NCBI GenBank assembly: GCA_965217045.1
Contig: OZ244228.1
Coordinates: 679,668 to 743,667, forward strand
DNA length: 64,000 nucleotides
Origin: Vicinamibacterales bacterium
GTDB taxonomy: Bacteria > Acidobacteriota > Vicinamibacteria > Vicinamibacterales > UBA8438
Direction: 5' to 3'
Shown here: positions 2,583 through 22,871 of the stretch, piece after piece
Layout of the letters: each line of letters starts with the position of its first letter
How positions within the stretch are numbered: the first letter of the stretch is position 1
Notes under the pieces: generated by a model
The model's input: the letters and a program-made list of their open reading frames with translations, nothing else
What the model was told of the DNA's origin: nothing
Database searches by the model: none
Made by a program: the position numbers and the translations under genes

Positions 2583-2598
2583 AGGCGCCCTTGCCGTT

Positions 2599-5875: not shown

Positions 5876-5961
5876 AGGAGCCCGCGCTATTCCACGGGTG
5901 CAGACTCCTGGCACGGTTGCTCCAATCGGGCGGCACGCGGCCGCACGCCGGCAGAGGCAAC

Positions 5962-7698
5962 ATGACCCTTGGCGTCAAGAAGTTCCTCGTCTTCGCGCTG
6001 GCGATCCTCGTGTCGTGGATTGCCGGCGCCACGGTCCCGCCGACCTGGAACGTCGACCAGGTCACCCTGGACGTCCGGACGGACGACGAGGGCCGACTCT
6101 ACTACCTGTCCGAGGGGCTCCGCGCGCACTTCGAGCCGGTGCCGCTGGACCGGGCGCAACTCGATCCCGCGGCAGTCCACGGCTCGCATCTTGCTCCGTC
6201 GGTGACGGAAGAGTTCGTCTCGGCCATTGAGACCCGCGACGGGCGAGCCGAGACGGTCTACTACCAGCTCCGGGCACGGGCACACTGGGGGTGGTGGTCG
6301 CTGCTGCCGGCCGTGGTCGCGGTGGTGCTGTGCTGGCTCACGCGCGAGCCGGTCACCGCGCTGGCCGCGGGCATCGTCTCCGGCGCGCTGCTGCTGGGCC
6401 GCTACGACATCACCGGCGAGGTGCTGATCCCGTCGCTCGCGACGACCAACTCGGCCGGGGTCCTGCTCCTTTATCTATGGCTGCTGGGCGGACTCATGGG
6501 GGTCTGGTCGCGAACCGGCGCGGCGCAGGCGTTCGCGGAGTTCATGACCGCGCGCTTCGTCCGCGGCCCGCGCAGCGCCAAGCTCGTCGCCTGGATGCTC
6601 GGCGTCGTCTTCTTCCAGGGCGGAACGGTGAGCACCGTGGTGGTCGGCACGACCGTCAAGCCGATCGCCGACAAGGAGCGGATCAGCCACGAGGAGCTGG
6701 CCTACATCGTCGACTCGACCGCCTCGCCGATCGCGTCGCAGCTCGCCTTCAATGCGTGGCCGGGCTACGTCCAGGCGTTCATCTTCGTTTCCGGGGTCAG
6801 CTTCCTGGCGACGGAGGCCGACCGCATCGCGTTCTTCTTCCAGAGCGTGCCGTTCTGCTTCTATGCCATCTTCGCGGTGCTGGGTACGTTCCTCCTGAGC
6901 ATCGAGAAGCCGGTCTTTCTCGGCCGGCGCCTCGCGGCGGCCATGGTGCGTGCCCGCACGACGGGCCGGCTGGACGCCGACGGGGCGGCCCCGCTCAGCG
7001 CCCGGGAGCTGCAGGCGAGCCACGTTCCCGAGGGCTACGCGCCGCACGTCCTGGAGTTCTTCCTGCCGCTCGGCCTGCTCATCGGCGTTGCGGTCGGCAC
7101 CTTCGTCGTTTCCGGATCGCCGAACGTGCAGTGGGCGTTCGGCGGGGCGCTGCTGCTGGCGTCGGGCATGGCCCTGGCCCGGGGCATGTCGCTCAAGGAC
7201 CTGATGGCCGGGTTTCACGACGGTATCAAGGGCGTGGTGCTCGGCTCGGTCATCCTCCTGCTGGCCATCACCATCGGCAACGTCAGCGCGCAGACCGGGG
7301 GCGGCGTCTTCCTGGTCGACCAGCTGGGCGGCAGCGTGCCGTACTTCCTGCTGCCGGTGCTGCTGCAGCTGATGACGATGATCATCGCCTTCTCGACCGG
7401 CACCAGCTGGGGAACCTACGCGGTGGCGTTCCCGCTGGCCATGCCGCTGGCGTGGGCCGTGGCCGGCACGCAGGGGCTGTCGCATCCGGAGCTGTTCATG
7501 ACGCTCTGCTTCGCCGCGGTCATGGACGGCAGCGTCTACGGCGACCAGTGCTCGCCGATCTCGGACACCACCGTGCTCAGCTCGGTCTGTACCGGCTGCG
7601 ACCTGATGGACCACGTCAAGACGCAGATTCCCCAGGCCTCGGTGGCGGCTGCCCTGGCCGCGGTCTGCTGGACGGCCATCGCCTTCTTCACGGCGTAG
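5962..7698 (+). CDS. Na+/H+ antiporter NhaC-family membrane transporter
   Basis: The ORF runs 5917-7698; the likely start is ATG 5962 (MTLGVKKFLVFALAIL). It is polytopic and hydrophobic throughout. The stretch TVKPIADKERISHEELAYIVDSTASPIASQLAFNAWPGY and the C-terminal YGDQCSPISDTT are typical of the NhaC family. Confidence 0.8.
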   Translation: MTLGVKKFLVFALAILVSWIAGATVPPTWNVDQVTLDVRTDDEGRLYYLSEGLRAHFEPVPLDRAQLDPAAVHGSHLAPSVTEEFVSAIETRDGRAETVYYQLRARAHWGWWSLLPAVVAVVLCWLTREPVTALAAGIVSGALLLGRYDITGEVLIPSLATTNSAGVLLLYLWLLGGLMGVWSRTGAAQAFAEFMTARFVRGPRSAKLVAWMLGVVFFQGGTVSTVVVGTTVKPIADKERISHEELAYIVDSTASPIASQLAFNAWPGYVQAFIFVSGVSFLATEADRIAFFFQSVPFCFYAIFAVLGTFLLSIEKPVFLGRRLAAAMVRARTTGRLDADGAAPLSARELQASHVPEGYAPHVLEFFLPLGLLIGVAVGTFVVSGSPNVQWAFGGALLLASGMALARGMSLKDLMAGFHDGIKGVVLGSVILLLAITIGNVSAQTGGGVFLVDQLGGSVPYFLLPVLLQLMTMIIAFSTGTSWGTYAVAFPLAMPLAWAVAGTQGLSHPELFMTLCFAAVMDGSVYGDQCSPISDTTVLSSVCTGCDLMDHVKTQIPQASVAAALAAVCWTAIAFFTA

Positions 7699-7720
7699 AG
7701 TCCGCGCCGTGGAACGGCGC
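7696..7720 (+). repeat. Divergent solo copy of the IS1182-terminus-like hairpin, overlapping the TAG stop of the NhaC gene
   Basis: TAGAGTCCGCGCCGTGGAACGGCGC resembles TAGGAGTCTGCGCCGTAGAACGGCGC at 20295 and 22826. The stem is GCGCCG/CGGCGC. Confidence 0.5.
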
Positions 7721-7721
7721 T

Positions 7722-7901
7722 TCAACGCGTTGCGGCATCCGCGCGCGATCGGGCCGCCGGCCATTCCCGCAGCACCCGCGGCGCGAGCCGCCGGGCGGTG
7801 CCCACGCCGGCGGCGACCAGGGGGTGCGCGAGCTGCATCAGAATGGCGCGTCCCCAGCCGAGTACGACCACCGTTTCACCGTTGACGCGGCGGGCGAGCA
7901 C
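7722..7901 (-). pseudogene. Possible remnant of a DUF2236/MpaB-type oxygenase N-terminus
   Basis: My translation of the minus strand gives VLARRVNGETVVVLGWGRAILMQLAHPLVAAGV..., which resembles the start of DUF2236 proteins and then degenerates to a stop after 59 codons. There is no credible full-length ORF. Confidence 0.25.
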
Positions 7902-7954
7902 CGCCTGTCATGGTAACCCCGCGTCCCCCAGCGGCATCGTGGTAGCGTCGTACC

Positions 7955-9064
7955 ATGCGCATCGGCATTCCGGCGGAGATCAAGGCGGACGAGAACCGCG
8001 TTGCCATCACGCCGTCCGGCGTCACGGCATTCGCGGCCCACGGGCACGAGGTGGTCATCGAGGCGGGTGCGGGGATCGGCAGTGCGATCCCGGATCGAGC
8101 CTACCAGGCGGCCGGCGCCAACGTGGCCGGCGGAGCCGACGAGGTCTGGGAACGCGCGGACCTCGTTCTGAAGGTCAAGGAGCCGCTAGAGCCGGAGTTC
8201 GATCGGATGCGGCCCGGCCAGATCGTCTTCACCTACCTCCATCTGGCCGCGTCGAGCGAGCTGACGGCCCGGTTGCTCGAGCGCCGCATCGTCGGCATCG
8301 GCTACGAGACGGTGCAGTTCCCCGACGGCACGCTGCCGCTGCTCGTGCCGATGTCGGAGGTGGCCGGACGGCTGTCCATCCAGGCGGGCGCCACGTCGCT
8401 CGAGATGCGGTCTGGCGGCAAGGGCCTGCTGCTGCCCGGCGTCTCCGGCGTCCGGCGCGGCCGGGTGACTATCATCGGCGCCGGCGTGGTCGGGCTGAAC
8501 GCCTGCGTCGTCGGCGTAGGGTTCGGGGCGGACGTCACGATCATCGACATCAATCCGCTGCGGCTCGCCTACGTGCGCGACGTCGTCCAGGGACACGTCA
8601 CCACGCTCATGTCGAACACCGCGAACATCGAGGGTGCCGTCGCGTCCGCCGACCTCGTTCTCTGCTCGGTGCTCATCCCGGGCGCCCGGACGCCGCGCCT
8701 GGTCACCCGCGCGCACCTGGCGCAGATGGAGCCCGGCTCGGCGCTCGTCGACGTGGCCGTCGACCAGGGCGGATGCGCGGAGACGAGCCGGGCGACGACC
8801 CACCACGACCCGCGCTACGTGGAGGAGGGCGTGGTCCACTACTGCGTCTCGAACATGCCCGGCGCGGTCCCGCACACGTCGACCTACGCCTTGACCAACG
8901 CCACGATGGCCTACGCGCTGGAGGTCGCCGACCGCGGCTGGCGCGCCGCCGCCGCGCGCGATCCGGCCCTCGCGAAGGGAGTCAACGTCGTCGACGGTCA
9001 GGTGACCCACGAAGCCGTCGCCGCGGCGCACGGTCTCGACCACGTGCCGCTGGGGGAGACGTAG
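7955..9064 (+). CDS. ald: Alanine dehydrogenase
   Basis: 369 aa, starting MRIGIPAEIKADENRVAITPSGV. It has the Rossmann motif IIGAGVVGLNA and VDVAVDQGGCAETSRATTH, and is full length relative to the Ald family. Confidence 0.95.
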   Translation: MRIGIPAEIKADENRVAITPSGVTAFAAHGHEVVIEAGAGIGSAIPDRAYQAAGANVAGGADEVWERADLVLKVKEPLEPEFDRMRPGQIVFTYLHLAASSELTARLLERRIVGIGYETVQFPDGTLPLLVPMSEVAGRLSIQAGATSLEMRSGGKGLLLPGVSGVRRGRVTIIGAGVVGLNACVVGVGFGADVTIIDINPLRLAYVRDVVQGHVTTLMSNTANIEGAVASADLVLCSVLIPGARTPRLVTRAHLAQMEPGSALVDVAVDQGGCAETSRATTHHDPRYVEEGVVHYCVSNMPGAVPHTSTYALTNATMAYALEVADRGWRAAAARDPALAKGVNVVDGQVTHEAVAAAHGLDHVPLGET

Positions 9065-9258
9065 CGCACGCGCGACGGAAGTCGTTCGGCCGTCCCGTCC
9101 ACAGCCAGGACAGCAGCCCGTGGTCCGGCACCACGCGGCACAGGAAATCCTCCACGGGAAGGCACCAGACGCATAGAGCAAGCGCGGCAGGGCGTGCTTG
9201 CTCGAGTATGGAAGCGGGGATTCGCAGTCGGTCAGGGTGATCTTGAGGGGGGCGGCGC

Positions 9259-9291
9259 AAAAAAAACAGGGCGGGGGATGCCCCCGCCCTG
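9259..9291 (-). terminator. Rho-independent terminator of the TonB-dependent receptor gene
   Basis: On the minus strand the sequence is CAGGGCGGGGG-CAT-CCCCCGCCCTG followed by TTTTTTTT, 33 nt after the stop at 9324. Confidence 0.75.
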
Positions 9292-9323
9292 CGGAAACTG
9301 CGCTTCGGATTTCAGTCCGGAGC

Positions 9324-12300
9324 CTACCAGTCGACGGTCGTGCTGAACTTGAACAGGCGGCCGTTCATGATCCCCGTCACACGCGGGAATGTGACGGCGG
9401 TGGTGTAGTTGTCGACCACCCGGGTGACGCTGTTCGCGTTGAAGATGTTGAAGACGTCGAAGTTGGCTCGGATGAGCCCCCCACCGAATCTCAAGATCTT
9501 GGTGAGTCGCAGATCGAGCTGGTTCACCTGCGGCTCGTACTGGACGGAGTTGTCGATGTACTGGGAAGTCGTCAAGGGGCCGCCCCTGCCGTCGAAGAAC
9601 CCGGTGCCGGAGGGGAACAGCGGGATAGAGGGCGTTTCCTGCAACGGGTAACCGAGCTGCGCTTCGATGTACTCCCGCTGGTTGTTAATCGGATACTCGG
9701 AGAACCGACGTTCTCCGGGAACGCTCTGAAGCACGAACGAGAAGGCCATGTCGTACGGCAGCGGCACCGAACCGTTGAGCTTGTACTGCGTCCTCTCACT
9801 CCACTCCGGCGCGTAGTTGCAGTATCCGGGCCGCTCCTGCATCGGATTGTCGATCGTGAAGCACTCGCTGACTTCCACGGCCCCCGTGGCGATGCCGCCG
9901 GCGAGCGTTATGCCGTTGGGAAACCGCCCGTCGAATATGAAGTCGATCCCGTTGAAGGTCTCCGACATCCTGCCGTCGGCGGGAATGAGCAGGTTGTCGG
10001 TGCCCAGGGCTCTCCCTTCCGGGGTGAGGGTGTACAGGTCGTCAAGAATCTGGCCGCTGATGTCTCCGAGCACCGCATCGTCGGGGGCTATGATGTTGAA
10101 CTTGCGGTAGTGCTCCGGCCCGATGGCGAGGTTGTCGACCGCGAGGAAGTTCATGTTGTTGCGGCGGAAGTACGCCACCTCGACCGACAGGCCGTCGGTC
10201 AGCTCATGTTGGATCCCGACCGAGTGCTGCCAGTTGGCCCGCCGATTGTTCCAGCCATTGAGTGTGCCGTCGGCAAAGTTGGTGGTCCCCCGGGTTTGGC
10301 CGAAGGTCGGATCGTTGATCTGCCCGCACTCGCCGTTCGCTCCGATGCTGGGGTGGAGCTCGCACTGCGGAACCAGGTCCCCGTTCAGGTCGTTCCAGTC
10401 CCGATACGAGTTGCTTACGATCGACTCCATTGGATTCTTGGTCTGCGCCAGAATCGTGCCGAGGGCGTTCACATACCGGCCCGAGTTCCACTTCAGCGCC
10501 GTCCGGCCGTTTCCGAAGAGGTCGAAGGCGGCGCCCAATCGCGCGTTGAGGTCGTTGAAGTTGGGAAAGCCGTCAAGGCGGTCGATGGAGAACGCTGGCA
10601 CGAACGGGCCCGCCGCGCGCGATTGTTCGGGAACCCATCCGGCGAGGTGGTCGTAGCGCACCCCGACGTTGAGCGTCAGCCGGTCGATCGTCCACTGGTC
10701 CTGCGCGTAGAGCCCCAGGAGATTCGCCTTCTGATAGGAAGTCGTGGGCGTGGCGTACTGTCGCACCTGGTACGGAACCCCGGGCTCTTCGAAGATGTAG
10801 GCCTTGTGGTTCAGAACGTAGGAACTGGGGTGGTTTTCTCCCACGTGGGTGCGGGTCATACCCACCTTGAAGTTGTGCGACCCGGTCACGTACGACATCG
10901 AGGCGCGCATGGTGAGATTGGGGAAATTGTTATCCGTTCCATACATCGCCGGCGTGTTCCCGCCAAGCCACATGAACGCGTTGACGTTGATGCCGTAAGA
11001 GTCGATCCAGACACCGACGTCGTCGATGGCGTTCACTTCGGGCTGCAGACCCGGGCTGCCCTGGGGCTTCGTATACGAGACGCCCGCCTCGAACAGCAGC
11101 CGGTTGCTCGCCGGCATGGTCCAGCTGACCTGCGTGTTGCGGATGTCTCCGTAGTCGTAGTCCATCGAGGCGTTGTAGTCGACGGTGCCGAATACCGCCC
11201 AGAACTGACACAGACAGTGGCCCTGGTCGGCATGCGATACGGTGAACTTGTTGCTCTCGCTCGCCTGCCACGTCAGACGGAAGCTGTTGTCGCGCGTGGT
11301 GCTCTGCTGCTCCGTCGGCCGGTCGAAGTCGGGCTGGTAGTCGACCGCCCCGTACGGCACCAGGTCGCGCGGCGCCGCGTTGTTGAAGCTCCCCGTCGTG
11401 TAGGTCTCCGTCCCCCACCACCGATGCGCCGTGTAGAACCACAGCCGGTCGCGGACGATCGGCCCGCCGATGCCGACGCCGACGTCCCGGTTGCTCTTGA
11501 GCCCCCGAACCTGGCGTTCGTCGAGTCCCCGCGCCCCGAGGGCCTCGTTCCAGTTCAGGTTCTGCATGTTCTCGTTCGCGCCGCTGGCGATCCCGTAGAC
11601 GCTGAACGCGTTGCCGCCCTCGCGGGGGATGTAGTTCATGGCGATCGCGCCGAAGCCCGTTTCGGCGTCCATGCCGCCGGTCGACATCACGACCTCCTCG
11701 ATCGACGCCTGGTTGGCGAAGAACAGCTTCCCGGTGCCGCCCCCGGACGTGACTGAGGCCGTGACCGACATGCCGTCCCACATGACCTCGCCGTCGTAGG
11801 TCGCGCTGCCGTGAATGATGACGGTGCCCCAGCTGTCACCGACGCTGCCGCCGACGTCCTGGCCGCCGCCCAGGATGTCGGTCTGCGCCCCGACGGTCAG
11901 CGCGGCGTAGCCCGAGTAGGTCCTGCCGGTCGGCAGAATGTCCAGCGTCTCGTTGGAGATGTTCTGCTGCTGCACGACGTTCTGCACGTCGATGACCGGG
12001 CTCGCACCGGAGACGGTCACCGTCTCCTCGACCGAGCCGACGGTCAGCGTGGCATCGACGTTCGCCGAGAACCCCGTGGCGATCTCGATGCCCTCGCGCA
12101 CGAACGTGCTGAAGCCGGGGAGGGTGAACGTCACCGTGTAGGTGCCGGGCCGCAACCCCTCGAGCCCGTACCGGCCCGAGCCGTCGGTGAAGGCGGTCCG
12201 CACGCCCTCGATGAGCGCCGGACTGCTCGCTTCCACCGTCACGCCGGGGAGGACGCCTCCCGTCTCGTCCGCCACCTCCCCTGCGATGCTGCCGGCCTGG

Positions 12301-12377: not shown

Positions 12378-12599
12378 AACTACCTCCCGCGTTAAGGCTG
12401 GCTCTGCTGTCCAGTCCCGTCACTACCCAGCGTCATGCCCTTGCGCCACGAGCGAATGACCGTTGGTGCGCATCGATCCGGCCTGGATGACCTTCCGATG
12501 TCTGAAGCGTGATCGGTGAGACTTATGCAAATTGTGTGCTCATGGCCGGCGTGCGGATCAAGGCCCGGAAAACGGCGCTCGGCTCAAAGCGATCGGCCG

Positions 12600-12642
12600 C
12601 AATCCGATTCAATCCGTTGGATCCATCCATTCCGTTGGATTG
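12600..12642. promoter_or_regulatory. Cluster of short direct repeats (candidate operator) upstream of the TonB-dependent receptor gene
   Basis: CAATCCG occurs twice (12600, 12610; period 10) and TCCGTTGGAT occurs twice (12613, 12631; period 18). The cluster sits in a locally less GC-rich intergenic region, about 225-265 nt upstream of the receptor start. Confidence 0.25.
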
Positions 12643-12672
12643 TGTGTCCGGACACGGGCAGGTCCCTGCCAG

Positions 12673-13377: not shown

Positions 13378-13684
13378 GACGGGATGCTAGTCCACTTCGT
13401 TGCCGGCATGCGATCCGCGGGACTGCGGGTAGACTGGGGACGGCGGGCGGCCGGCAGGAGCTGCCGGCGGTTGCCGCCCTGGCCGATGCCTACCCGGACT
13501 ACACGCTGGATGGCGCCCGGGCGACCGTCGAGGCGATTGTCGGCGAGTTCGGCGGCTCCGCGGGCCGCTGACGGCACGACGGTGTCGCCGTGGGGGAACG
13601 GCTGCTGATTCTGCGGAGAGGGTCGGGTCATTGAGCCGCATGGCGGGCCGCAGCGCCGCCGTGGTTGCGGCATGGAGGATTCTG

Positions 13685-14728
13685 ATGCGGACGCGCTGGT
13701 TGTTGCTCTTGCTCGCGGGAGTACTTGCCTTCGTGCCGCCGGCGTCCGCGCAGGACGGCGGCACGCTCGAGATCTACTTCGTCGACGTAGAGGGCGGCGC
13801 GGCCACGCTGCTGGTGTCGCCCTCCGGTGAGTCGATGCTCGTGGACTCTGGCCATCCCGGCACGGTGGACGCCGAACGGATCGCCGCCGCCGCGGCCGAC
13901 GCGGGGCTCGAGCGCATCGACTATCTGGTCACGACGCACTACCACCTGGACCACGTCGGCGGCGCGCCCGAGGTGGCGGCCCGGCTGCCGATACGCAACT
14001 TCGTGGACCACGGCCTGCCGACGGCCACGGAGCTCGACAGCAACCAGCCGCTCTATGAGGTCTACGTGGAGACCCGCGGGGACGGCCGGCACATGCCGGT
14101 GCAGGCGGGCGACCGGATCCCGATCGACGGCCTCGACGTGTGCGTCGTCTCGTCCGGCGAGGAGTTCATCACGACGCCCCTGCCCGGTGGCGGCGCGGCG
14201 AATCCGTTGTGCAACAGCTTCGCGCCGAAGGAGGAGACCCGCATCTCCGGCGGCGAGAACGGGCGGTCCGTCGGCCTCGTGATCCGCCACGGCGACTTCA
14301 GCACGATCGCGCTCGGCGATCTGACCTGGAACCGGGAGCACAAGCTCGTGTGCCCGAACAACCTGCTCGGCACCGTCGATCTGTACCTCACGACGCATCA
14401 CGGCCTGGCCATCTCCGGCCCGCGGGCGATCGTGCACGCCCTGCAGCCGCGGGTCGCCGTGATGAACAACGGGCCGACGAAGGGCGGAGCGCCCGAGGCG
14501 TGGGGGACCGTGCGCAGCTCGCCCGGTCTCGAGGACTTCTGGCAGGGCCACTATTCGGTGAACGCCGGTGCCGAGCACAACGCGCCGGAGGATTTCATCG
14601 CCAACTTCGACGAGTCGCGCGAAGGGTGCACGGCGCACTGGATCAAGGTGTCCGCGTCGTCCGACGGCAGCTTCACCGTCACGAACGGACGCAACGGGTT
14701 CAGCAAGACGTACGCTGCCGGGGGCTAG
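13685..14728 (+). CDS. MBL-fold metallo-hydrolase, secreted
   Basis: Start ATG 13685 follows GGAGGA and opens with the signal MRTRWLLLLLAGVLAFVPPASA. The metal motif is TTHYHLDHVGG. The TAG stop (14726-14728) lies inside the CTAG at the IS boundary. Confidence 0.8.
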   Translation: MRTRWLLLLLAGVLAFVPPASAQDGGTLEIYFVDVEGGAATLLVSPSGESMLVDSGHPGTVDAERIAAAAADAGLERIDYLVTTHYHLDHVGGAPEVAARLPIRNFVDHGLPTATELDSNQPLYEVYVETRGDGRHMPVQAGDRIPIDGLDVCVVSSGEEFITTPLPGGGAANPLCNSFAPKEETRISGGENGRSVGLVIRHGDFSTIALGDLTWNREHKLVCPNNLLGTVDLYLTTHHGLAISGPRAIVHALQPRVAVMNNGPTKGGAPEAWGTVRSSPGLEDFWQGHYSVNAGAEHNAPEDFIANFDESREGCTAHWIKVSASSDGSFTVTNGRNGFSKTYAAGG

Positions 14729-16319
14729 GAGTCTGCGCCGCAGGAGATGCCGCGGCGTGAAGTGGGTCGTCGGCCCATGCTCTGACTTATCGTGTCGGAG
14801 CAGCTTCGGCGGTCGCCCGACGAGGTAGTTCCTCGGCAGATGGCGAGATCCGGCGTTGACGGGCCCCTTGGTCCGCCAGAGACCGTGATGCGCGCCGATC
14901 GGTCGCCATCGCGAGCCTCGTTGCCGCGTGTCACGCCGCGATCAGGGCGTGCAGGCGCTTGGCGTTCAACGCCAGGCACACCAAGTCCCACTCGCCGCGC
15001 ACCTTCGCCAGCCCCCGCAGGCTGAAGCGCCGGAATCCCAGCACGTGTTTGATCCAGCCGTGCGGAGCCTCCGACAGCCACTTGCGTTCGGCGTATGCCG
15101 CACGACCCGCCGGCTTCGACAGCTTCTCGGCCATGCGATTCGTCGCGGGGTACTGCCCCGGGTCGCGGGGCCGCGCCGTCTTGCCCTCCCGTCCCAGTGA
15201 CACTTACCCGTCGACGCCCCGCGTCTCCAGGTTCACCAAGTCCCGCTCGTTACTGTAGCCAGCGTCCGCCAGCACCGTGTCTGGCTGCTCGCCGACCGTC
15301 TCCGCCACCTCGTCGAGCAGCAGCGGCAGCCCACCCTGGTCGCTCGCGTTCGCCGTCACCTCCGTCGCCACCACCAACTGGTGCTCACCATCCACCGCTA
15401 CCTGCGCGTTGTAGCACTGCTGGAACCCGTCGTTGCTCGTCTTCATGATCCCGCTCTCCGGGTCCGTGAAGTTGCTCTGTGCCTTCTCGTCCGGCTCGCC
15501 ATACCCCCGCTTGTACGGCCGTCCGCCCTTCAGGTTCCGATCCTGGCCCGGCTGCCGCCCGCCCGCGTCGTCCGCCGCCCACCGTGCCGCCTCCAGCCGC
15601 TCCTTCGCCGCCCGGATCGCCGCCAGGCGATCCTCCCGCCGGCGCAACTCCGACGGGAGCTCGTCGCCGCGTGCGTCCGGCCCGAAGCGCTCATCCTCAG
15701 CCGCGTCGGCGTCGCGTGCCGCCCGCACCAGCGCGTCAATCTCACCAGCCAAGCGCCGCTCTTCCTCCTGCATCCGACCGTAGCTCATCGCCTTGTGCTT
15801 GCTCGCGTTCGCACGAACCTTCGTGCCGTCGATCGACAGCTTGCCGAAGCTCGCCAACCCCAATTCCCGCGCCAGACGCACCACCTCCACAAACAGCGCC
15901 TTGAAGTCCTCCAGGTGCCGACGCCGAAACTCGCAAACCGTCCGGTGCTGCGGAAAGTTGCCGGCCGCCAGCACCCGGAACGCCACGTCCTCCTCCAGCC
16001 TCCTCGCAATCCCCTGCGACGAAAACACCCCCGTCGCGTAGGCGTAGAGCAGCACCTTCACCATCATCCGCGGCTCATACGGCGCGTTGCGCCGACCATC
16101 CCCCGCATACGCGGCGTAGAACGCCGTCAGGTCCAGGCCGTCTACCAGATCGCTGACGTGGTGCGCCAAATGGCCCTCCGGCAACCATGCCCGCACGTCG
16201 GGCGGCAACAGCAGCGATTGGTCCGGTGCGTAGCGGCGAAAAGTCGTCGACATCAAGTCCTTCCGGCGTCCGATCTCGCCTGCGATTGTCGCACCGTTTT
16301 CTGCGGCGCAGACTCCTAG
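14725..16319 (-). mobile_element. IS1182-family (IS5-like) insertion sequence with perfect terminal inverted repeats
   Basis: CTAGGAGTCTGCGCCGCAG at 14725-14743 is the exact reverse complement of 16301-16319. The outer CTAG may be a target duplication, which would make the element proper 14729-16315. It encloses a single transposase frame. Confidence 0.85.
14931..16256 (-). pseudogene. IS1182-family DDE transposase interrupted by an in-frame TAA
   Basis: ORFs 15204-16256 and 14931-15203 are in the same frame and separated only by TAA (15206-15204). The junction reads ...ETRGVDG*VSLGREGK... where relatives as I recall them have Tyr. Both the N-terminal InsH-like region and the C-terminal WIKHVLGFRRFSLRGLAKV motif are present. 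Confidence 0.85.
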
Positions 16320-16424
16320 TACGGGAGGAACCGGTGGGAGTTCGTGGTCACGTTCGCACCGCTGATCGTGCGCGGCGGGACCGGCGCCGCGGTCAATCCG
16401 ATCGCGACGTTCTAGAGCGGCGCT

Positions 16425-17798
16425 CTACTCGTAGTCCGCGGCTGCGAGTGACAGGCGTACGACCTCGGTGTCGTTGCGTGCGATCACGTGGCGGTTCGCG
16501 AACGCCGGATGCGCCCACAGGACCGCGCGGTCGTGGTTTGTCCAGCGGTTGGAGCCGCCGCCGCGGGTACGGGTGGTGGGCGTCAGCAGGTGCGTCCGGT
16601 CGACCTCCTCGTAGCCGGTCGGCGTGAAGCGGGCAATGACCAGCTCGCCGGTCTCGACGGAGATGAACGAGCGGTCGTGGTTCTGCACGAGGTGTGAGCT
16701 CGCCCAGCGGTCCTCGGGTACGAGCCGGTCGCTCGACCACAGCCGCTCGCCGGTCGTGGCGTCCACACCGCGCAGCTCGCCGTAGCTGTTGAGCCCGTAG
16801 ATCGTGTCGCCCACCACGATCGGCGTCGACGTCATGGATCTCTGCACTGGGCGGTCGGTGCGATTGGGGTTCGCGCCGGTCCAGACTAGGCGCGCCGCGG
16901 GACGGTCGGCATTGAGCGCCAGCATCAGGCCGCCGTTCTCCACCTGCGTCACGAGCAGGTAGCGCCCGCTGCGAACCGGCGTGCCGATCGTCAGCCCGCT
17001 CGCGACCTCGAAGTCGTGCTGCCACCAGATGCGGCCGGTCGCCGGGTCGAGCGACGTGACCGCCGCCGGGTGCCAGACGATCAACTGCCGCACGCCCCCG
17101 GCGGTGGTCACGATCGGCGAGGAGTAGCCCGCTTCCGAGGTCGTCTCGATCGCGCGCCACACCTCGGCGCCTGTCGCCTTGTCGAACGCCACGACCATGG
17201 CGTCGGGCTCGCCGCCGAGCAGCGTGATCAGATGCTCGCCCTCCACGAGCGGCGAGTGCGATATGCCGTAGACCGGCACGGTGACGCCGTAGTCGGTCAC
17301 GGTGTCGATCTGCCAGATCAGATCACCGCTGGCGGTGTCGAAGCACGACAGCATGCCGGCGGCCCCGAGGATGTAGACGCGGTTGCCGTCGACGGTCGGC
17401 GTGGCCCGGGGTCCGGTGGTGAACACCGACACGATGTTGCGGTAGGTCGCGGGCCATTCCCGCGTCCAGAGGACCGCCCCGGTCTCCTCGTCGAGCGCCA
17501 CGAGCCGCTCGTGGCCGTCCAGCGTCCGGCTGCCCGGCGTTTCCTGATAGTCGAGGACGAAGACGCGCCCGTCGGCGACGGCCGGCCCGGCGAAGCCGCC
17601 GCGCACCGGCGTGCGCCACTTGACGATCAGCCCGTCGTCGGCGAAGCGCTCGACGATGCCGGTCTCGCGCCACACGGCGCCCCGGTCGACGCCGCGCCAC
17701 TGCGGCCAGTCCTCGGCGTTGAGCACGGCGGTCAAGAGGCAGACGACGGCGCAGGCGAGCGCCGCGGTCATTCGGCAGGGCAGACGACGGTCGGACAT
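16425..17798 (-). CDS. PQQ-like (BamB/YVTN-type) beta-propeller repeat protein, secreted
   Basis: The track ORF extends to 18137, but the credible start is ATG 17798 (MSDRRLPCRMTAALACAVVCLLTAVLNA). It continues with WPQWRGVDRGAVW and repeated blades of the form ..DG.V(F/Y)(V/I)L......L.A.D..TG...W. Confidence 0.8.
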   Translation of the reverse strand: MSDRRLPCRMTAALACAVVCLLTAVLNAEDWPQWRGVDRGAVWRETGIVERFADDGLIVKWRTPVRGGFAGPAVADGRVFVLDYQETPGSRTLDGHERLVALDEETGAVLWTREWPATYRNIVSVFTTGPRATPTVDGNRVYILGAAGMLSCFDTASGDLIWQIDTVTDYGVTVPVYGISHSPLVEGEHLITLLGGEPDAMVVAFDKATGAEVWRAIETTSEAGYSSPIVTTAGGVRQLIVWHPAAVTSLDPATGRIWWQHDFEVASGLTIGTPVRSGRYLLVTQVENGGLMLALNADRPAARLVWTGANPNRTDRPVQRSMTSTPIVVGDTIYGLNSYGELRGVDATTGERLWSSDRLVPEDRWASSHLVQNHDRSFISVETGELVIARFTPTGYEEVDRTHLLTPTTRTRGGGSNRWTNHDRAVLWAHPAFANRHVIARNDTEVVRLSLAAADYE

Positions 17799-17847
17799 GG
17801 CAGCTCCCGGTGCGGCATGGCTGGCGGCTGGCCGCCGGCCATGCCGG

Positions 17848-18186
17848 TCAACGTTCAGATGGCGGTTGCACATGCGCTTCGGCGGCGGGCACGTCGCGCA
17901 GGCGCTCCTGCACGGTGCCCGGCAGCCCGAGGGAGGTGTCCGCGCCCAGCTCGGCGAGCAGCGCGGCCGTCTCCGGGAATTCCTGGAAGTAGAACGACTG
18001 CTTGCTGCCCTCCGCCAGGCGGTAGGCGGTGCGGCCGCGGAAGTCGCGGGCGTCGATGTCGGCGCCGTGGTCCAGGAGCATCCGGACCACCAGACGGCGG
18101 TCGGCTGCGCCCGCCGCTGCGAGTCCTGCAGCGGCAATCGATACGACGAGGCACAGGGACGCGAGCCGGCCGCTGAACGCGTTCAT
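17848..18186 (-). CDS. Small secreted ankyrin-repeat protein
   Basis: 112 aa with the signal MNAFSGRLASLCLVVSIAAAGLAAAGA. It contains an ANK-like unit, VVRMLLDHGADIDARDFRGRTAYRLA. It lies directly upstream of, and co-directional with, the PQQ-like propeller gene. Confidence 0.5.
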   Translation of the reverse strand: MNAFSGRLASLCLVVSIAAAGLAAAGAADRRLVVRMLLDHGADIDARDFRGRTAYRLAEGSKQSFYFQEFPETAALLAELGADTSLGLPGTVQERLRDVPAAEAHVQPPSER

Positions 18187-18272
18187 CTCAGGTTTGCCGG
18201 AGTCGACGGGTGGAGCACCTAAGGTTGCTAACGAGTGGGAGTTATCCTAGCATACGGGCTATCCTCTTCCCT

Positions 18273-18960
18273 ATGTTCAGGGCTGCCGTCGGTGCCGGTC
18301 TGGGGCTCGTCTCCCTCGGATTGGGCGGGCCGCAACCTGCGGGCCAGGACATCCTCAGATGGGCGCGCGTTGCTCGACCGGTACTGCGTCGCCTGCCACA
18401 GCGACCGGCTCAGGACGGGCGGGCTCTCCCTGGAACGGCTCGACGTCGGCGACGTGCAGGGCAACGCGGAAGTGCTCGAGAAGGTGCACCGCAAGCTGAG
18501 CGACGGGCTGATGCTGCCGGCTGGGCGGCCGCGGCCCGCCGCCGCCGCGGTGGAGGGCTTCCTGGCCGCGCTCGAAACGGCGCTGGACGCGGCGGCCGCG
18601 CCCGATCCCGGCCGGATTCCCACGCGCCGCCTGAACCGGACCGAGTACGTCAAGGCCGTGCACGACCTGCTGGAGCTGGAGATCGACGGCGCGGAGCTGT
18701 TGCCCGGCGACCTGGCCGGGTTCGGCTTCGACAACAATGCCGACGCGCTCGCGATCACCCCCGCGCTGATGAACCGCTACATGGCGGCGGCGATGCACAT
18801 CAGCCGGACGGCGCTCTCCAGCCCGGAGAACGGCCCCGCGGGGCACGTCTACGCGGTTCCCGCGCGGGCGCGGCAGGATGCGCGGATGGGCGCCGTTCGC
18901 CACGCGCGGGGGGCTGGCCGTGCGGCACACGTTACCAACGAGCACCACCTCGATCGGACG
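18273..18960 (+). pseudogene. Decayed N-terminal fragment of a PSCyt/DUF1587 (DUF1592-type) heme-c protein
   Basis: A signal-peptide-like start (MFRAAVGAGLGLVSLGLGG, ATG 18273) is in a different frame from the following LLDRYCVACHSDRLRTGGLSLE (CxxCH) and RRLNRTEYVKAVHDLLELEIDGAELLPGD...GFDNNADAL (DUF1587-like). Homology stops near QDARMG, about 215 aa into what is normally a roughly 800-1000-aa protein as I recall. Confidence 0.45.
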
Positions 18961-19317
18961 ATGGTGCTCGCGGGCCGCAACTTCGCGGGTGCCGGCGCGT
19001 CGCTGGCGGTGCGCGCCTTCGCGACGGCGAAGGCGCGCTTCAGCCGCACGCGAGAGCAGCTCGCGGTCTCCATCACGTTCTGGCGGCACAAGGAAAAGAG
19101 TGACGCGATCGGTCTTTTGCGGGATACGATTGCGAAGCTGGATGCGCTCGATGCCGCGCTGTCGGCAGAGGCGGTCGATGCCGGCGTCGCGGACGCCCTC
19201 GCGAGGAACGCTGACGCGGCCTGCCAAGCCTGTCACGCCGTCTACCGCGCGCTGGATCCGGAGACCGGGACGTACGAGTTGAAGCGGGGATCCGTCAGGG
19301 GGGAGGTAGCGAGATGA
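18961..19317 (+). CDS. Small class II (cytochrome c-prime/c556-like) c-type cytochrome candidate
   Basis: An internal ATG at 18961 of ORF 18235-19317 gives MVLAGRNFAGAGASLAVRAFA (a possible signal peptide) plus about 95 aa of helical sequence. It ends ...ARNADAACQACHAVYR, and a C-terminal CxxCH..YR is the hallmark of class II cytochromes c. The stop overlaps the next gene's start (ATGA). Confidence 0.45.
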   Translation: MVLAGRNFAGAGASLAVRAFATAKARFSRTREQLAVSITFWRHKEKSDAIGLLRDTIAKLDALDAALSAEAVDAGVADALARNADAACQACHAVYRALDPETGTYELKRGSVRGEVAR

Positions 19318-20297
19318 GTTCACGAGTACGAACGGCGTTGACCGTGCTGCCCGTCGTCGCCGGCATGCTCTGGTCGGGTGCGGCGTCCGTCGCCGCCCAA
19401 GGCCGCACGCCGTGGGGCGACCCGGACCTGCAGGGCATGTGGACGAACACCACGACGACGCCCATGGAGCGGCCGGAGGACCTCGCGGGGCAGGCGACGT
19501 TGACCGAGGAGGAGCGCGCGGTGCGCGACCCGGAGGTCCAGGCGGCGGTCAGCTTCGACCGGGCGCCCACCCCCGGCAACGTGGGCGGCTACAATGAGTT
19601 CTGGGTGGAGCGGGGCAACCTGATCCGCCAGACGTCGCTCATCGTCGATCCGCCCGACGGCCGGCTGCCCGCGCTCACGCCGGGGGCGGAACGGAAGCGG
19701 AACGAGTTCCTGGCGCGGTGGGTTGCCTCGCCCAGCTCCTGGGAGGACATGAACCTGTACGACCGCTGCATCACGCGCGGCCTGCCCGGCGCCATGATTC
19801 CCGGGTTCTACAACCACAACTATCTCATTCTGCAGACGCCCGGCTACGTGGTGGTGCAGGTCGAGATGATCCACGATACGCGCATCATTCCGCTGGACAC
19901 GAGCGAGCATCCGCCGACGGGCATTCCCCAGTGGCTCGGAGATTCGCGAGGCTACTGGGACGGCGACACGCTGGTGGTCGAGACGAGGAACTTCGCTCGC
20001 CGCGCCGAGCAGAGGACGAACATCGGACGGTTCTTCCTGACGTTCTCGGGCGGCGAGCACGCGCGTCTCGTCGAGCGCTTCACCCGGGTCGGCAACGACC
20101 GGCTGGACTACGAGTTCACGGTCATCGATCCGACCGTCGACACGCGCTCCTGGACCGCGTCGATTCCGATGCAGAAGAGTGAGGAGGCGCTGTTCGAGTA
20201 CGCGTGCCACGAGGGCAACTATGCGCTCGGCAACATCCTGGCCGGCGCGCGGGCCGATGAGCGGGCGGCGGCGGTCGCCGAGCAGCAGTCGCGCTAG
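19314..20297 (+). CDS. PDLQ-CHEGN family secreted protein, paralogue a (function unknown)
   Basis: 327 aa. A signal peptide is followed by RTPWGDPDLQGMW..TPMERP, SLIVDPPDGRLP, YDRCITRG, EMIHDTRIIPLD, WLGDSRGYWDGDTLVVETRNF and FEYACHEGNY. Confidence 0.85.
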   Translation: MSSRVRTALTVLPVVAGMLWSGAASVAAQGRTPWGDPDLQGMWTNTTTTPMERPEDLAGQATLTEEERAVRDPEVQAAVSFDRAPTPGNVGGYNEFWVERGNLIRQTSLIVDPPDGRLPALTPGAERKRNEFLARWVASPSSWEDMNLYDRCITRGLPGAMIPGFYNHNYLILQTPGYVVVQVEMIHDTRIIPLDTSEHPPTGIPQWLGDSRGYWDGDTLVVETRNFARRAEQRTNIGRFFLTFSGGEHARLVERFTRVGNDRLDYEFTVIDPTVDTRSWTASIPMQKSEEALFEYACHEGNYALGNILAGARADERAAAVAEQQSR

Positions 20298-20322
20298 GAG
20301 TCTGCGCCGTAGAACGGCGCGG
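20294..20322 (+). repeat. Solo IS1182-terminus-like hairpin overlapping the TAG stop of paralogue a
   Basis: CTAGGAGTCTGCGCCGTAGAACGGCGCGG. Its first 16 nt are identical to both IS termini. About 26 of 29 nt match the transposase-proximal IS end (reverse complement of 16290-16319). The stem is GCGCCG/CGGCGC. Confidence 0.75.
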
Positions 20323-20360
20323 GCGACTTCGCAGCGTGCCCGCCCGTGAGAGGGGCAGGA

Positions 20361-20885
20361 ATGACAGCTCACACAGCGACGGCCGCGGCGTTGACGGTGC
20401 TGGTGGCGGCCTCCGGGTACCGCGACCCGGCGGCCGCCCAGGGCGACGACACGCTCTACGTCCTGGACGGGTCGGCCCTGTACCGAGTCGTGCCGGCCGG
20501 CGAGAACGTCAAGGTCGTCGACGACGTCGGGCCGGGGGTGCCGGCCGTCGTGAGCACGGTGCCCCCCGCGTACCCGCCGGAGATGGACGAGGCGTGGGTG
20601 ATCGAGCTGGCGGCTGTCATCGAGGAGGACGGGACCGTCGAGGAGGCCGATGTGGTGCGGTCCCAACCGTTCTCGGGGCCGGGGCCGGGGCAGGCGTCAC
20701 CGCCCTGGGTGATGGAGCTCAACGCCTCGGCCGTGGCTGCCCTCGAACAGCGGCGGTACCGCCCCGTGCTCCTGAACGGCCAGGCGATCCGCATGCGCGT
20801 CTCGGTGGTGGTCGTGTACATGCCGCCGGACGCGGGCGAAGTCGCGCCGCCGGCCGCCGCCGGCGGCGGCCAGGACCGGCCGTGA
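20361..20885 (+). CDS. Secreted protein with TonB C-terminal-like domain
   Basis: Start ATG 20361 (MTAHTATAAALTVLVAASG). VPPAYPPEM...ELAAVIEEDGTVEEADVV...AVAALEQRRYRPVLLNGQAIRMRVSVVVVY follows the TonB_C pattern. There is no N-terminal TM anchor with a long Pro-rich spacer. Confidence 0.5.
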   Translation: MTAHTATAAALTVLVAASGYRDPAAAQGDDTLYVLDGSALYRVVPAGENVKVVDDVGPGVPAVVSTVPPAYPPEMDEAWVIELAAVIEEDGTVEEADVVRSQPFSGPGPGQASPPWVMELNASAVAALEQRRYRPVLLNGQAIRMRVSVVVVYMPPDAGEVAPPAAAGGGQDRP

Positions 20886-20902
20886 GCAGCGGCAAGGGGC
20901 CC

Positions 20903-21811
20903 ATGCCCGGCAGGCGCGGTCCGGCGTCGCTGCTGGTGCTGTCGCTGCTGGTGGCGCCGGCTGCCGCTCGCGCGCAGGAGCCGCCGCTCGTCGACGTGCT
21001 CGGCCGGGTGACCCGCTACGTCGGCGAGCTCAGCGCCCGGCTGTCGGGCGCGGTGGCCGAGGAGCATTACGAGCAGCGTGCGACGACGCCCGTGGACAGC
21101 AGCCTCGGCAGTCGTGGCGGCAGCCGCAGCGCCTACTACCGGCGCACGCTGCGCTCGGACTACCTCCTCGTGCGACCTCGGAATGTCGGGTGGTACTACG
21201 GATTCCGCGACGTCTTCGAGGTCGACGGGCAGCCGGTGCGCGACCGTCAGGAGCGTCTGACCGAACTGTTCCTCGATCCGTCCGCGTCGGCGAACACGCA
21301 GATTCGCGGCATCGTCCGCGACAGCGCCCGCTACAACATCGGCGACGTGCAACGCAACTTCAACGTCCCGACGCTCGCGCTGCTCTTCCTGCACGCGGAC
21401 AACAAGGCGCGCTTCGACTTCGAGCGGGCGGCTGACGACTCGCCGCCTCTCGGACTCGACCGCCCCGAGGCGGACGGCGAGGTGTGGGTCATCGCCTACC
21501 GGGAGAACTGGCCGACCACGCTGATCCGCGGGCGGGAGCGCAGCAACCTGCCGGCCTCCGGGCGTTTCTGGATCGAGCCGGCCACCGGGCGCGTGCTGGC
21601 CAGCGAGGTCGGCGTGCAGGACTCCGAGATGGAGGCGACCATCGCCGTGGGCTACCGGTTGGACAGCGGGCTGGGCCATCTGGTGCCGGCCGAGATGCGC
21701 GAACGCTACGAGAACCGCCGGCAGCGCTCGCGCGTCGACGGCACGGCGACCTACACCGACTTTCGGCGGTTCCAGGTGCAGGTCAGCGAGTCCGCACCGT
21801 TCCGCGACTGA
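20903..21811 (+). CDS. Hypothetical secreted protein
   Basis: In-frame ATG 20903 (MPGRRGPASLLVLSLLVAPAAARAQ) within track ORF 20336-21811. The codon usage looks coding. I could not recognise a family. Confidence 0.6.
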   Translation: MPGRRGPASLLVLSLLVAPAAARAQEPPLVDVLGRVTRYVGELSARLSGAVAEEHYEQRATTPVDSSLGSRGGSRSAYYRRTLRSDYLLVRPRNVGWYYGFRDVFEVDGQPVRDRQERLTELFLDPSASANTQIRGIVRDSARYNIGDVQRNFNVPTLALLFLHADNKARFDFERAADDSPPLGLDRPEADGEVWVIAYRENWPTTLIRGRERSNLPASGRFWIEPATGRVLASEVGVQDSEMEATIAVGYRLDSGLGHLVPAEMRERYENRRQRSRVDGTATYTDFRRFQVQVSESAPFRD

Positions 21812-22828
21812 ATGGGGGACGAAGTGAAGAGGTTCAGATTCCTGCTGGCCGTGTCGGCTGCTGTCTCGATCTGCCTGGGGGTCGCGCCGCCGGCTGGGGC
21901 GGCGTGCGAGGACGTGGGCGAGATCCGGTTCATCTGCGACGTCATCAGTCCGGAGGACTTCGCCATCGTTCCGGCCACCGAGTGGATCATCGCCTCCGGG
22001 GATCGGGCCGGCGGCCGGATCCAACTCGTGAACGTGCCGGACAGGACCGCGACGCCGGTGTTCCCGACGGGCGTGCCCGCCGAGCGGCTGGACGCCGCGA
22101 CGTACCCGACGTGCCCCGGGCCCATCGACCCGCAGGAGGGCGACGAGTTCCGGGCGCACGGCCTCTATCTGCGGCCCGGGCCGAGTCGGGTCCATACGCT
22201 GTACGTGGTTCACCACGGCTTCCGGGAATCGATCGAGGTGTTCGAGGTGGCCGCCCGCGGCGCCGCGCCCACCCTCACCTGGGTCGGATGCGCCGTGGCG
22301 CCAGAGCCGCTCGGCCTGAACGCGGTGGTGGCGACGCCCGAGGGAGGCTTCGTGACCACGAGTCCCCGCACCGGGGACGTGTGGGAATGGCATACCGGCA
22401 CGGGCTGGGCCCGGGTGCCCGGCAGCGAGCACAGCGCGCCGAACGGACTGGAGATCTCGAGCGACGGGCGCTGGCTGTACATCGCCGGGTGGCGCGAGGA
22501 GAAGCTGACGCGCCTGTCGCGCGGCCAGACGCCGATTCAGAAGGTCGTCGTGCCGCTGGGCTTCCGGCCCGACAACGTGCGGATGTCGGCGGACGGCTCC
22601 GTCATCTTCGCGGCCGGCCACGGCAACGTCCGGGAGCCGCGGGACACCGCCCGGGAGACGTCCAACGTCGCGACGATCGACCCGTGGACGCTGGACGTGC
22701 GGCGGATATTCGAGCACCCGCACATCGCAGACTTCGGCGGTTCGACCACTGCCGTCCAGTTCGGCGACGAGCTCTGGCTGGGCACCTACCGGGGCAGGAT
22801 GATCGCCTATCTCCCGATGCCCGAGTAG
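21812..22828 (+). CDS. Six-bladed beta-propeller protein (PON/arylesterase / SMP-30-like)
   Basis: 338 aa with a signal peptide. It contains SAPNGLEISSDGRWLYIAGW, PDNVRMSADGSVIFAAGH and FGDELWLGTY. The start abuts the previous stop (TGAATG). Confidence 0.6.
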   Translation: MGDEVKRFRFLLAVSAAVSICLGVAPPAGAACEDVGEIRFICDVISPEDFAIVPATEWIIASGDRAGGRIQLVNVPDRTATPVFPTGVPAERLDAATYPTCPGPIDPQEGDEFRAHGLYLRPGPSRVHTLYVVHHGFRESIEVFEVAARGAAPTLTWVGCAVAPEPLGLNAVVATPEGGFVTTSPRTGDVWEWHTGTGWARVPGSEHSAPNGLEISSDGRWLYIAGWREEKLTRLSRGQTPIQKVVVPLGFRPDNVRMSADGSVIFAAGHGNVREPRDTARETSNVATIDPWTLDVRRIFEHPHIADFGGSTTAVQFGDELWLGTYRGRMIAYLPMPE

Positions 22829-22853
22829 GAGTCTGCGCCCTAGAACGGCGCGG
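22826..22853 (+). repeat. Solo IS1182-terminus-like hairpin overlapping the TAG stop of the propeller gene
   Basis: TAGGAGTCTGCGCCCTAGAACGGCGCGG is 27/28 identical to the copy at 20295. It lies between convergent genes. Confidence 0.75.
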
Positions 22854-22871
22854 ATGAGTCCGCCCGCCCGC

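Follow-up and report, generated by a model that had tools for sequence, protein, structure and literature searches.

The stretch of DNA analysed here, a window of 64,000 nt from a Vicinamibacterales bacterium (Acidobacteriota; GenBank assembly GCA_965217045.1, contig OZ244228.1, positions 679,668 to 743,667 of the forward strand), carries an insertion sequence (IS) and several short solitary hairpins that resemble its ends and sit on the TAG stop codons of genes. [quoted passage not shown] To this family the copies at 20295, 22826 and 7696 belong as hairpin-only members; they are not debris of the local IS. Four direct observations carry this reading: the IS targets and duplicates CTAG, one composite repeat unit is found as a pair of empty and filled sites, the association with stop codons is specific for the reading frame, and the helix of the second module of the repeats covaries.

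The insertion sequence and its CTAG target

The motif TAGGAGTCTGCGCC occurs exactly four times in the window, i.e. at 14726(+), 16305-16318(-), 20295(+) and 22826(+), whereas none was found in 100 dinucleotide-preserving shuffles of the same DNA. The first-pass annotation, made from the letters of the window, had described the solitary copies at 20295 and 22826 as a nearly identical pair, and indeed they agree at 27 of 28 nt, with the sequences as it quoted them. Its statement that the TAG of all four copies at gene ends (7696, 14726, 20295 and 22826) is the stop codon of the upstream gene is confirmed by the open reading frames (ORFs), since each TAG terminates a long ORF, encoding an NhaC-type antiporter, a metallo-beta-lactamase-fold (MBL) protein, paralogue "a" and a PON-like protein, respectively (Table 1). 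The proposed kinship with the IS termini also stands: both IS ends consist of CTAG and GAGTCTGCGCCGCAG, and the transposase-proximal end resembles the solitary hairpins over ~29 nt (25 matches and a 2-nt gap, in an alignment read by eye). The diverged copy at 7696 is real, but it lacks one G (TAG-AGTCC), is thereby shifted by 1 nt in its register and is more diverged. The leading TAG belongs to a flanking tetranucleotide, CTAG, that is a duplicated target site and not merely element sequence.

The terminal inverted repeats (TIRs) of the IS are perfect over 15 nt (GAGTCTGCGCCGCAG) and CTAG is present on both flanks. Its transposase gene, 14931-16253(-), carries the Pfam domains DUF772, DDE_Tnp_1 and DDE_Tnp_1_6; its frame is interrupted at the codon for Tyr350, which has become a TAA stop (15204-15206), giving products of 349 and 90 amino acids. 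Once this stop is read as Tyr, the protein is 100% identical to an intact database protein of 440 amino acids (P0001), which reaches 366.5 bits with the NCBIfam model for IS1182, NF033551 (cut-off 270). The same transposase scores 62 bits with the IS5 model, below the cut-off, and the IS in the window thus belongs to the IS1182 family. The copy in the window, the only IS copy there, has no intact transposase frame and is therefore not autonomous; intact 440-amino-acid copies exist elsewhere. It is disabled by the TAA even though its insertion is polymorphic, and the intact copies identical to P0001 lie in an island together with other transposases and an integrase (L125/L126).

The target of the IS can be read from its empty sites. 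The insertion is present in three out of five near-identical strains (metagenome assemblies), whereas the two others (L002 and L005) have a single CTAG at this position, in the context ...gccgggggCTAGtacggg..., i.e. ...GCCGGGGG-CTAG-TACGGG.... This indicates that the IS entered a CTAG and duplicated it, and that the TAG stop of the MBL gene predates the IS. Among relatives of the transposase (P0001, P0024 and P0070) we recovered ~16 independent insertion sites in three sub-lineages, at which every readable flank is CTAG (34 out of 34). The earlier suggestion that the IS targets CTAG is thus borne out by independent sites that carry it on both sides, next to an empty site with a single CTAG, and full IS copies elsewhere share the termini, which speaks against the other reading then considered, i.e. 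a generic palindrome without any related IS. Three of the ~16 sites (~19%) lie at stop codons, i.e. in the MBL gene of the window, L131 and L139; one lies within an integrase gene and the others are intergenic. The possibility that the IS had entered the loop of an older hairpin, its inverted repeats being the arms of a REP, was rejected, as the empty site contains no hairpin. An exact look-up of the truncated 349-amino-acid transposase returned the same insertion site only.

Next to the IS, a 93-nt segment (16320-16412) is enclosed by the CTAGs at 16316-16319 and 16413-16416. It is absent in a relative (L147), which has a single CTGG there, and it resembles another CTAG-bounded indel; no repeat of this segment was found in any fetched locus. 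Two further indels between relatives were noted. In L002, at ~12085-12200 (window position ~23,950, between a gene for a 331-amino-acid protein and a PIN-domain gene), an insertion of 116 nt is flanked by a direct duplication of ~31 nt (cggaacctcctgtagctcgagcccagctagt) and is unrelated to the hairpin family. Around 25293 of the window, L147 has an extra segment of 87 nt in an otherwise alignable intergenic site, which likewise shows no similarity to the hairpin family.

The repeat family and its insertion sites

When one genome per species was scanned for GAGTCNGCGCCNTNGAACGGCGC, at least 117 loci came up, many per genome, and among the matches listed nearly all derive from metagenome-assembled genomes (MAGs) of Vicinamibacterales/Vicinamibacteria. 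After removal of self-matches of the palindrome on the opposite strand, the de-duplicated census holds 196 copies, from dozens of MAGs, in a sample of ~1 Mb; these loci were selected for containing the motif, and genome-wide rates derived from them are only rough. When the loci are aligned on the motif, conservation begins abruptly at position -4 and extends over ~84 nt. The usual unit of ~84 nt (size range 27-84 nt) comprises a 4-nt leader, C[C/T]AG, a hairpin (H1), a second structured module (M2) and a trailing C[T/C/G]AG, with the consensus C[C/T]AG - GAGTCTGCGCCG TAGAA CGGCGCGGACTC - CTGG - AGGGTTGGTTGGGCGCCGAGCGGAGCCGCAGGCGACGATTGGCGGG - C[T/C/G]AG. Most copies contain both modules (146 H1+M2), ~31 consist of H1 only or of H1 with a partial M2, and 19 were classed as "M2-only/other", which are mostly degenerate composites with ~4 true M2-only copies among them. 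The commonest leaders are CCAG (54), CTAG (25), GTAG (17), CCGG (15) and GCAG (12), so the AG is conserved and GT is not; 26% of the copies have a leader that ends in TAG. Units also occur in tandem, in 24 head-to-tail runs of two to five units with a period of 82-84 nt. The longest array (five units, 2017-2375 of L078) lies ~150 nt from a tRNA gene, 2532-2605(-).

H1 is a 17-bp hairpin whose arms both match the inverted repeats of the IS, with identity over 12 nt, and is in effect laid out as the left inverted repeat, a 5-nt loop and the right inverted repeat. The loop is common to copies across dozens of species (GTAGAAC or GTGGAAC). A long variant of H1 has perfect 11-nt TIRs (GAGTCTGCGCC/GGCGCAGACTC) around two small hairpins. 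TIRs that match the IS at both ends are thus found in H1, with its 12-nt arms, and in the long variant, but not in the predominant H1+M2 unit. Some composite units (in L011, L055, L104 and L123) carry an extra hairpin (GGCCGCAGCGCGACC-TTGC-GGTCGCG...) in the inner loop of M2, and units with the long variant carry CGCCTCC-GGA-GGAGGCG within H1; the family thus diversifies by the addition of small hairpins.

The M2 helix covaries. Pair 64-88 is AU in 17 copies, CG in 14, GU in 12 and GC in 8, and pair 62-90 is CG in 42 and GC in 12; changes on both sides were seen at 12 pairs, and none of 500 shuffles reached the observed covariation score. The M2 partners can pair in 90% of the cells, versus 33-41% when the partner is slid by one to three columns. 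On the H1-to-M2 strand, G.T wobbles outnumber A.C mismatches (111 vs 39), and the predicted RNA fold of the sense strand (-54.6 kcal/mol; z = -6.6 vs shuffles) is more stable than that of the antisense strand (-41 kcal/mol). A scan against Rfam 15 gave no family at gathering score besides the neighbouring tRNA, and the hits with E up to 1 were at chance level only. The idea that the solitary hairpins are intrinsic terminators was dropped, as no terminator-like site is present in 19800-23300 and neither hairpin of the consensus unit is followed by a run of T.

In the window itself, an nhmmer profile built from the solitary hairpins and subsequently from full units revealed three members besides those quoted in the first-pass annotation, which had missed them: two composites, 2531-2617(-) and 5841-5911(-), and an M2-only copy at 40238 (Table 1). 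All five near-identical strains examined carry the hairpins at 20295 and 22826, and the hairpin at 22825-22861 occupies a 45-nt spacer between convergent genes. The unit at 5841-5911 is not at a stop codon but in a divergent intergenic (promoter) region.

Table 1. Positions of the insertion sequence, the members of the repeat family and the genes that end on them, numbered from the first letter of the window
Feature	Position	Strand	Remarks
IS1182-family insertion sequence	14729-16315	-	1587 bp; terminal inverted repeats GAGTCTGCGCCGCAG
Left CTAG target duplication	14725-14728	+	TAG 14726-14728 is the stop of the MBL gene
Right CTAG target duplication of the IS	16316-16319	+	
Hairpin-only (H1) member	20294-20330	+	CTAG + GAGTCTGCGCCG-TAGAA-CGGCGCGGGCGACTTC; TAG is the stop of paralogue "a"
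Hairpin-only (H1) member, GTAG leader	22825-22861	+	TAG 22826-22828 ends the PON-like gene
Diverged hairpin-only member	7696-7720	+	TAG-AGTCCGCGCCGTGGAACGGCGC, one G missing; stop of the NhaC-type antiporter gene
Full composite (degenerate H1 + M2)	2531-2617	-	TCAG leader; trailing CTAG 2531-2534
Composite with shortened M2	5841-5911	-	Flanks CCAG 5908-5911 and CTAG 5841-5844
M2-only copy	40237-40306	+	Directly after CTAG; TAG 40238-40240 is the stop of another paralogue of "a"
ORF, NhaC-type antiporter gene	5917-7698		Na_H_antiporter (Pfam); TAG stop at the 7696 copy
ORF, MBL-fold gene	13631-14728		Lactamase_B (Pfam); TAG 14726-14728 at the left flank of the IS
ORF, paralogue "a"	19314-20297		TAG 20295-20297
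ORF, PON-like gene	21812-22828		TAG 22826-22828

For the unit at 5841-5911 an empty site is available. In L148, a relative whose PON-like orthologue is 76% identical at the protein level, the corresponding site reads GCAACCATG-CTAG-TCTACGGCG, whereas the filled site of the window reads GCAACCGTG-CCAG-[63-nt unit]-CTAG-TCTACGGCG. This clean pair shows that a composite unit inserts at CTAG. A MAFFT alignment that placed the end of the element on the L148 flank was rejected, since direct comparison favours the reading as an empty site (30 out of 45 positions identical versus 12). A filtered search for orthologous empty sites among GTDB loci returned near-identical strains only, all of them filled, and the empty sites came from relatives fetched by means of the PON-like protein. 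One of these (L147, PON-like orthologue 97% identical) has an extra composite unit of 84 nt between the TAG of paralogue "a" and the hairpin present in the window, with CTAG and CCAG at its borders. The trailing CTAG of one composite unit, in L129, is occupied by an IS. A tblastn search of the transposase against the 117 motif loci revealed no IS copy adjoining repeats.

Stop codons at the borders of the repeats

We considered as a likely gene any ORF of at least 100 codons with a G+C content at third codon positions of at least 0.8. Such ORFs end on 32 of the 42 TAG leaders, versus ~4% of all TAG trinucleotides (Fisher p = 5e-36), and the preference for stop codons noted in the window is thus strong in copies outside it as well. 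The association is specific for the frame: 49 ORFs that are still open at the left border of a unit are in frame 0, of which 32 stop at position -3 and 17 at +12, and ~10 are in other frames or read on. The 17 latter ORFs run on, in frame, for 15 nt past the leader until they meet a TAG of the H1 loop, which adds five codons. The trailing CTAG provides the stop of a convergent ORF in 17 out of 139 units. Units that carry the stop of a gene favour the orientation of that gene over the opposite one by 49:17, and 64 out of 159 copies have no co-oriented ORF ending nearby.

The window itself contains an example of such an extension. The ORF 2599-4563(-) passes the leader, which is now CAG, and stops on the TAG of the hairpin loop at 2599-2601, so that the protein ends in ...LPGQAPAR, whereas its tandem paralogue (583-2517) and its orthologue in L148 end in ...LPE precisely at the site of the leader, the former with TAG and the latter with TGA. 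The region 583-4563(-) holds two tandem PQQ-propeller paralogues, ~80% identical over the repeat blocks found, and the composite unit fills the 81-nt spacer between them; L148 possesses a single orthologue, of the downstream copy.

How much of this association follows from the target alone can be judged from CTAG sites away from the elements. These number 152 in 982 kb (~one per 6.5 kb, in a genome with 70% G+C), and 38 (25%) overlap a predicted stop. The earlier supposition that (C)TAG is mostly found at stop codons therefore fails, as only ~4% of the TAG trinucleotides and ~25% of the unoccupied CTAG sites are stops. The fractions at stops of the elements (~42%), the free CTAG sites (25%) and the IS (~19%) are of the same order and the excess in the elements is modest. 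Among TAG leaders, C-TAG and G-TAG occur in a ratio of 25:17, versus 38:132 at free TAG stops (p = 7e-6). Within the window four paralogues share the end ...SR-TAG, and both of those with C-TAG carry an element (H1 at 20295 and M2 at 40238), whereas both with G-TAG (29300 and 30344) are without one. Predicted stops away from elements (~982 kb) comprise 194 TAG (36%), 330 TGA and 15 TAA, and free TAG stops are preceded by G in 68% and by C in only 20% of the cases; the low frequency of C could reflect either avoidance of CTAG or depletion of free CTAG stops through occupancy by elements.

We envisage the following scenario. The IS enters only the palindrome CTAG and duplicates it, and the composite unit (~80 nt), again bounded by CTAG-like tetranucleotides, would behave alike. 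Because CTAG is rare and about a quarter of the free sites overlap a TAG stop on one strand, an element homing to CTAG would often land exactly on a stop codon, which the duplicated CTAG would preserve. The T of the leader would then be kept by selection where the stop needs it and elsewhere may drift to C, a change that would also lengthen the stem, as CCAG pairs with CTGG. At the end of a gene the same change would let the ORF run on for five codons, to the in-frame TAG of the H1 loop. The IS1182 transposase presumably moves the repeats in trans, and the units may have a function at the RNA level.

In the first-pass annotation it was concluded that the ends of mobile elements define the 3' ends of genes. 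This holds only weakly, through the identity of the stop and the five-codon extensions of the 17 ORFs that end on the loop TAG. However, the stop of the MBL gene is older than the IS, the end ...SR-TAG is kept in paralogues that are free of elements, and where orthologues of the PON-like gene lack the hairpin, their stop is at an unchanged position but is TGA.

Paralogue "a" itself belongs to a set of twelve paralogues of a ~330-amino-acid protein without a Pfam domain (41-48% identity), located between about 19300 and 57700 of the window, e.g. 19314-20297, 28316-29302, 29354-30346, 39305-40240, 40378-41346, 47904-48959 and 55831-56691, and on the minus strand 22872-23915, 27125-28082, 49036-50029 and 56784-57651. 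Nine of the twelve end in TAG, several with the conserved end ...SR-TAG.

Competing explanations and known systems

Several observations weigh against the view that the repeats are a MITE/REP-like family mobilized through ends shared with the IS1182-type IS. The right end of the composite unit, ...GATTGGCGGG before CTAG (...GGCGGG), is unlike the inverted repeat of the IS (...AGACTC before CTAG), and a comparison of the right end of M2 with this inverted repeat, made by eye only, revealed no convincing inverted-repeat relation. Movement of the composite unit by a DDE transposase acting on both ends is consequently not explained; a surrogate right end and a different enzyme are both possibilities. 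The clean pair of empty and filled sites described above is the single one for a repeat unit. Flanks are rarely perfect, the commonest leader being CCAG and the junction of H1 and M2 being CTGG, and among TAG leaders 17 out of 42 are GTAG, versus CTAG at 34 out of 34 IS flanks. Hairpin-only copies show no clean CTAG...CTAG duplication, and no empty CTAG site was found for them. At the PON-like gene, the orthologues without the hairpin that end with TGA at the same codon position (L143/L147 and L145/L148) have unrelated spacers; here either the hairpin brought the TAG along or recombination replaced the region, and the comparison does not support a plain insertion into a CTAG that was already there. 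Finally, stops are more frequent in the flanking tetranucleotides of elements than at free CTAG sites (p = 0.003), and this excess, together with the covariation of M2 and the 49:17 orientation, suggests selection on structure or function as a further influence on the distribution. The strand-biased structure would fit a single-stranded intermediate of movement and a role in the 3' untranslated region (UTR) alike.

The older explanation that the IS leaves solo ends, so that the solitary hairpins would be remnants of former full copies, i.e. single ends or excision footprints, draws on their identity with the IS termini and on the same (C)TAG flank. It is very improbable. The copies belong to an old, order-wide family in which one loop is conserved across dozens of species, the same M2 adjoins in 146 out of 196 copies and units stand in tandem, all of which points to descent from master copies and not to independent decay; moreover, the internal IS sequence beside the inverted repeats (GCAGGAG... 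or GCAGAAAA...) is not kept in the same form. The reading as IS remnants was thus already contradicted by the shared loop and M2, and it is the other option of the first-pass annotation that does exist, namely a family of REP/MITE-like hairpins akin to the IS ends.

More is to be said for true REPs or bacterial interspersed mosaic elements (BIMEs), spread by a tyrosine transposase (RAYT/TIRYT, Y1-HUH) that acts on single-stranded hairpins by way of the (G/C)TAG head, in which case the IS1182 element merely acquired REP arms as inverted repeats or shares the CTAG site. The size, the G+C-rich imperfect palindrome (20-40 nt), the extragenic position, the high copy number and the clustering in arrays are those of REPs, and about a quarter of the heads (26%) end in TAG. 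The strand-biased G.T wobbles and the covariation of the helix fit recognition as a single strand, and the unit has no TIR at its right end; if an element with CTAG at its own end were inserted 3' of CTAG, the outcome would mimic a duplication of CTAG. Furthermore, the provision of TAG stops by GTAG-type REPs is known, and a distinct TIRYT group is encoded by Acidobacteria (PMC3733652). We nevertheless consider this explanation unlikely, since the H1 arms are identical over 12 nt to the inverted repeats of a DDE-type IS that demonstrably moves and duplicates CTAG, the consensus head is CCAG and not GTAG or GTGG, and the arrays are head-to-tail and not alternating as in BIMEs. No inverted pair of hairpins around a small ORF was encountered in the ~1 Mb of sampled loci either, a weak argument as RAYT genes are usually single-copy.

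It seems rather improbable, too, that the placement is mainly due to selection, with the two-hairpin unit as a functional module of the 3' UTR (a stabilizer of mRNA 3' ends, or a processing or protein-binding site) retained only directly after stops and the specificity of insertion being secondary. The compensatory changes that maintain the M2 helix, a sense RNA fold far more stable than shuffles and the antisense strand, the co-orientation with the upstream gene, the retention of the 20295 and 22826 hairpins in all five strains and the slight over-representation of stops relative to free CTAG sites would all be expected. However, the juxtaposition is exact to the nucleotide and the frame, beyond what selection alone would produce, the 64 out of 159 copies without a co-oriented ORF end nearby and the unit in the promoter region at 5841-5911 do not fit, U-tract terminators and Rfam matches are absent, and the IS, which has no such function, has the same CTAG flanks.

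A MITE/REP-like family that shares ends and target with the IS1182-type IS is, therefore, the reading that we prefer. A more specific version of it is possible but doubtful, namely that REP/BIME-like two-hairpin units are spread by a DDE transposase of the IS1182 family instead of a RAYT, by means of a left-end hairpin composed of both inverted repeats and a surrogate right end, that they home by CTAG onto amber stops with an in-frame TAG in the loop as back-up, and that they have possibly been adopted by the hosts as an RNA module of the 3' UTR across the Vicinamibacterales. The use of a surrogate right end has a precedent in ISEcp1. If this version is true, some "GTAG/CTAG REPs" of other phyla may be driven by DDE transposases as well.

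For the annotation of genomes, the family matters because many gene ends, short C-terminal extensions (-QAPAR) and 84-nt arrays in MAGs of Vicinamibacterales, which are abundant soil Acidobacteriota, trace to one repeat family and an IS. Gene callers and repeat maskers should allow for it. It also provides a natural example of how a palindromic CTAG target makes a transposon a "stop-codon homer" in a genome with a high G+C content, and it connects REP-like hairpins with a DDE transposase instead of a RAYT.

The individual traits of the family are known from other elements. IS5, of the IS5 family that is related to IS1182, has the target YTAR with a 4-bp duplication, and resembles the IS of the window in its palindromic, CTAG-type target, the length of the duplication and a DDE transposase with DUF772 and DDE_Tnp_1, but the transposase of the window scores as IS1182 (366 bits) and not as IS5 (62 bits). 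MITEPsy1 of Pseudomonas syringae, a MITE derived from ISPsy2 (IS5 family), inserts at CTAG/YTAA with a 4-nt duplication and has been trapped experimentally while moving (PMC3189936). Like the repeats studied here, it is short and non-coding, its TIRs resemble those of an IS resident in the genome, and it is inserted at CTAG with duplication of 4 nt (PMC3189936). However, MITEPsy1 measures 100 nt and has a TIR at both ends, whereas in our family the minimal form is a 27-nt hairpin of paired TIRs and the common 84-nt unit has no TIR at its right end. Our family also has an IS1182-family parent, a far larger copy number and a far wider phylogenetic spread, and its mobility is deduced solely from empty and filled sites. 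MITEPye1, an IS1182-family-derived MITE related to ISPye18 of Paracoccus yeei, has IS1182-like TIRs and 4-bp direct repeats, occurs in one to three copies per chromosome, is intergenic and is predicted to form a long stem-loop when transcribed; the parts of its description available to us mention neither an association with stop codons nor a target sequence (PMC11578231). The family described here differs from it by its hundreds of copies, its tandem arrays and its covarying second module.

The closest resemblance in appearance is with GTAG-type REPs, which reportedly "often provide" the TAG stop of flanking ORFs and show G.T pairing, suggestive of transcription as in the family studied here (PMC3733652). 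Such REPs (e.g., SMAG of Stenotrophomonas) and BIMEs are likewise palindromes rich in G+C, 20-40 nt long and present in many copies, with a head ending in TAG and an occurrence in clusters (PMC3733652; PMC2817692). REPs, however, go together with RAYT tyrosine transposases and the orientation alternates in BIMEs, whereas the units described here have the inverted-repeat arms of a DDE-type IS1182 element, a CCAG/CTAG head, flanks like a duplication of CTAG and a head-to-tail arrangement. In its workings the family thus resembles a CTAG-homing MITE, and in its appearance a REP/BIME; it combines known traits and no new class of system is needed to account for it.

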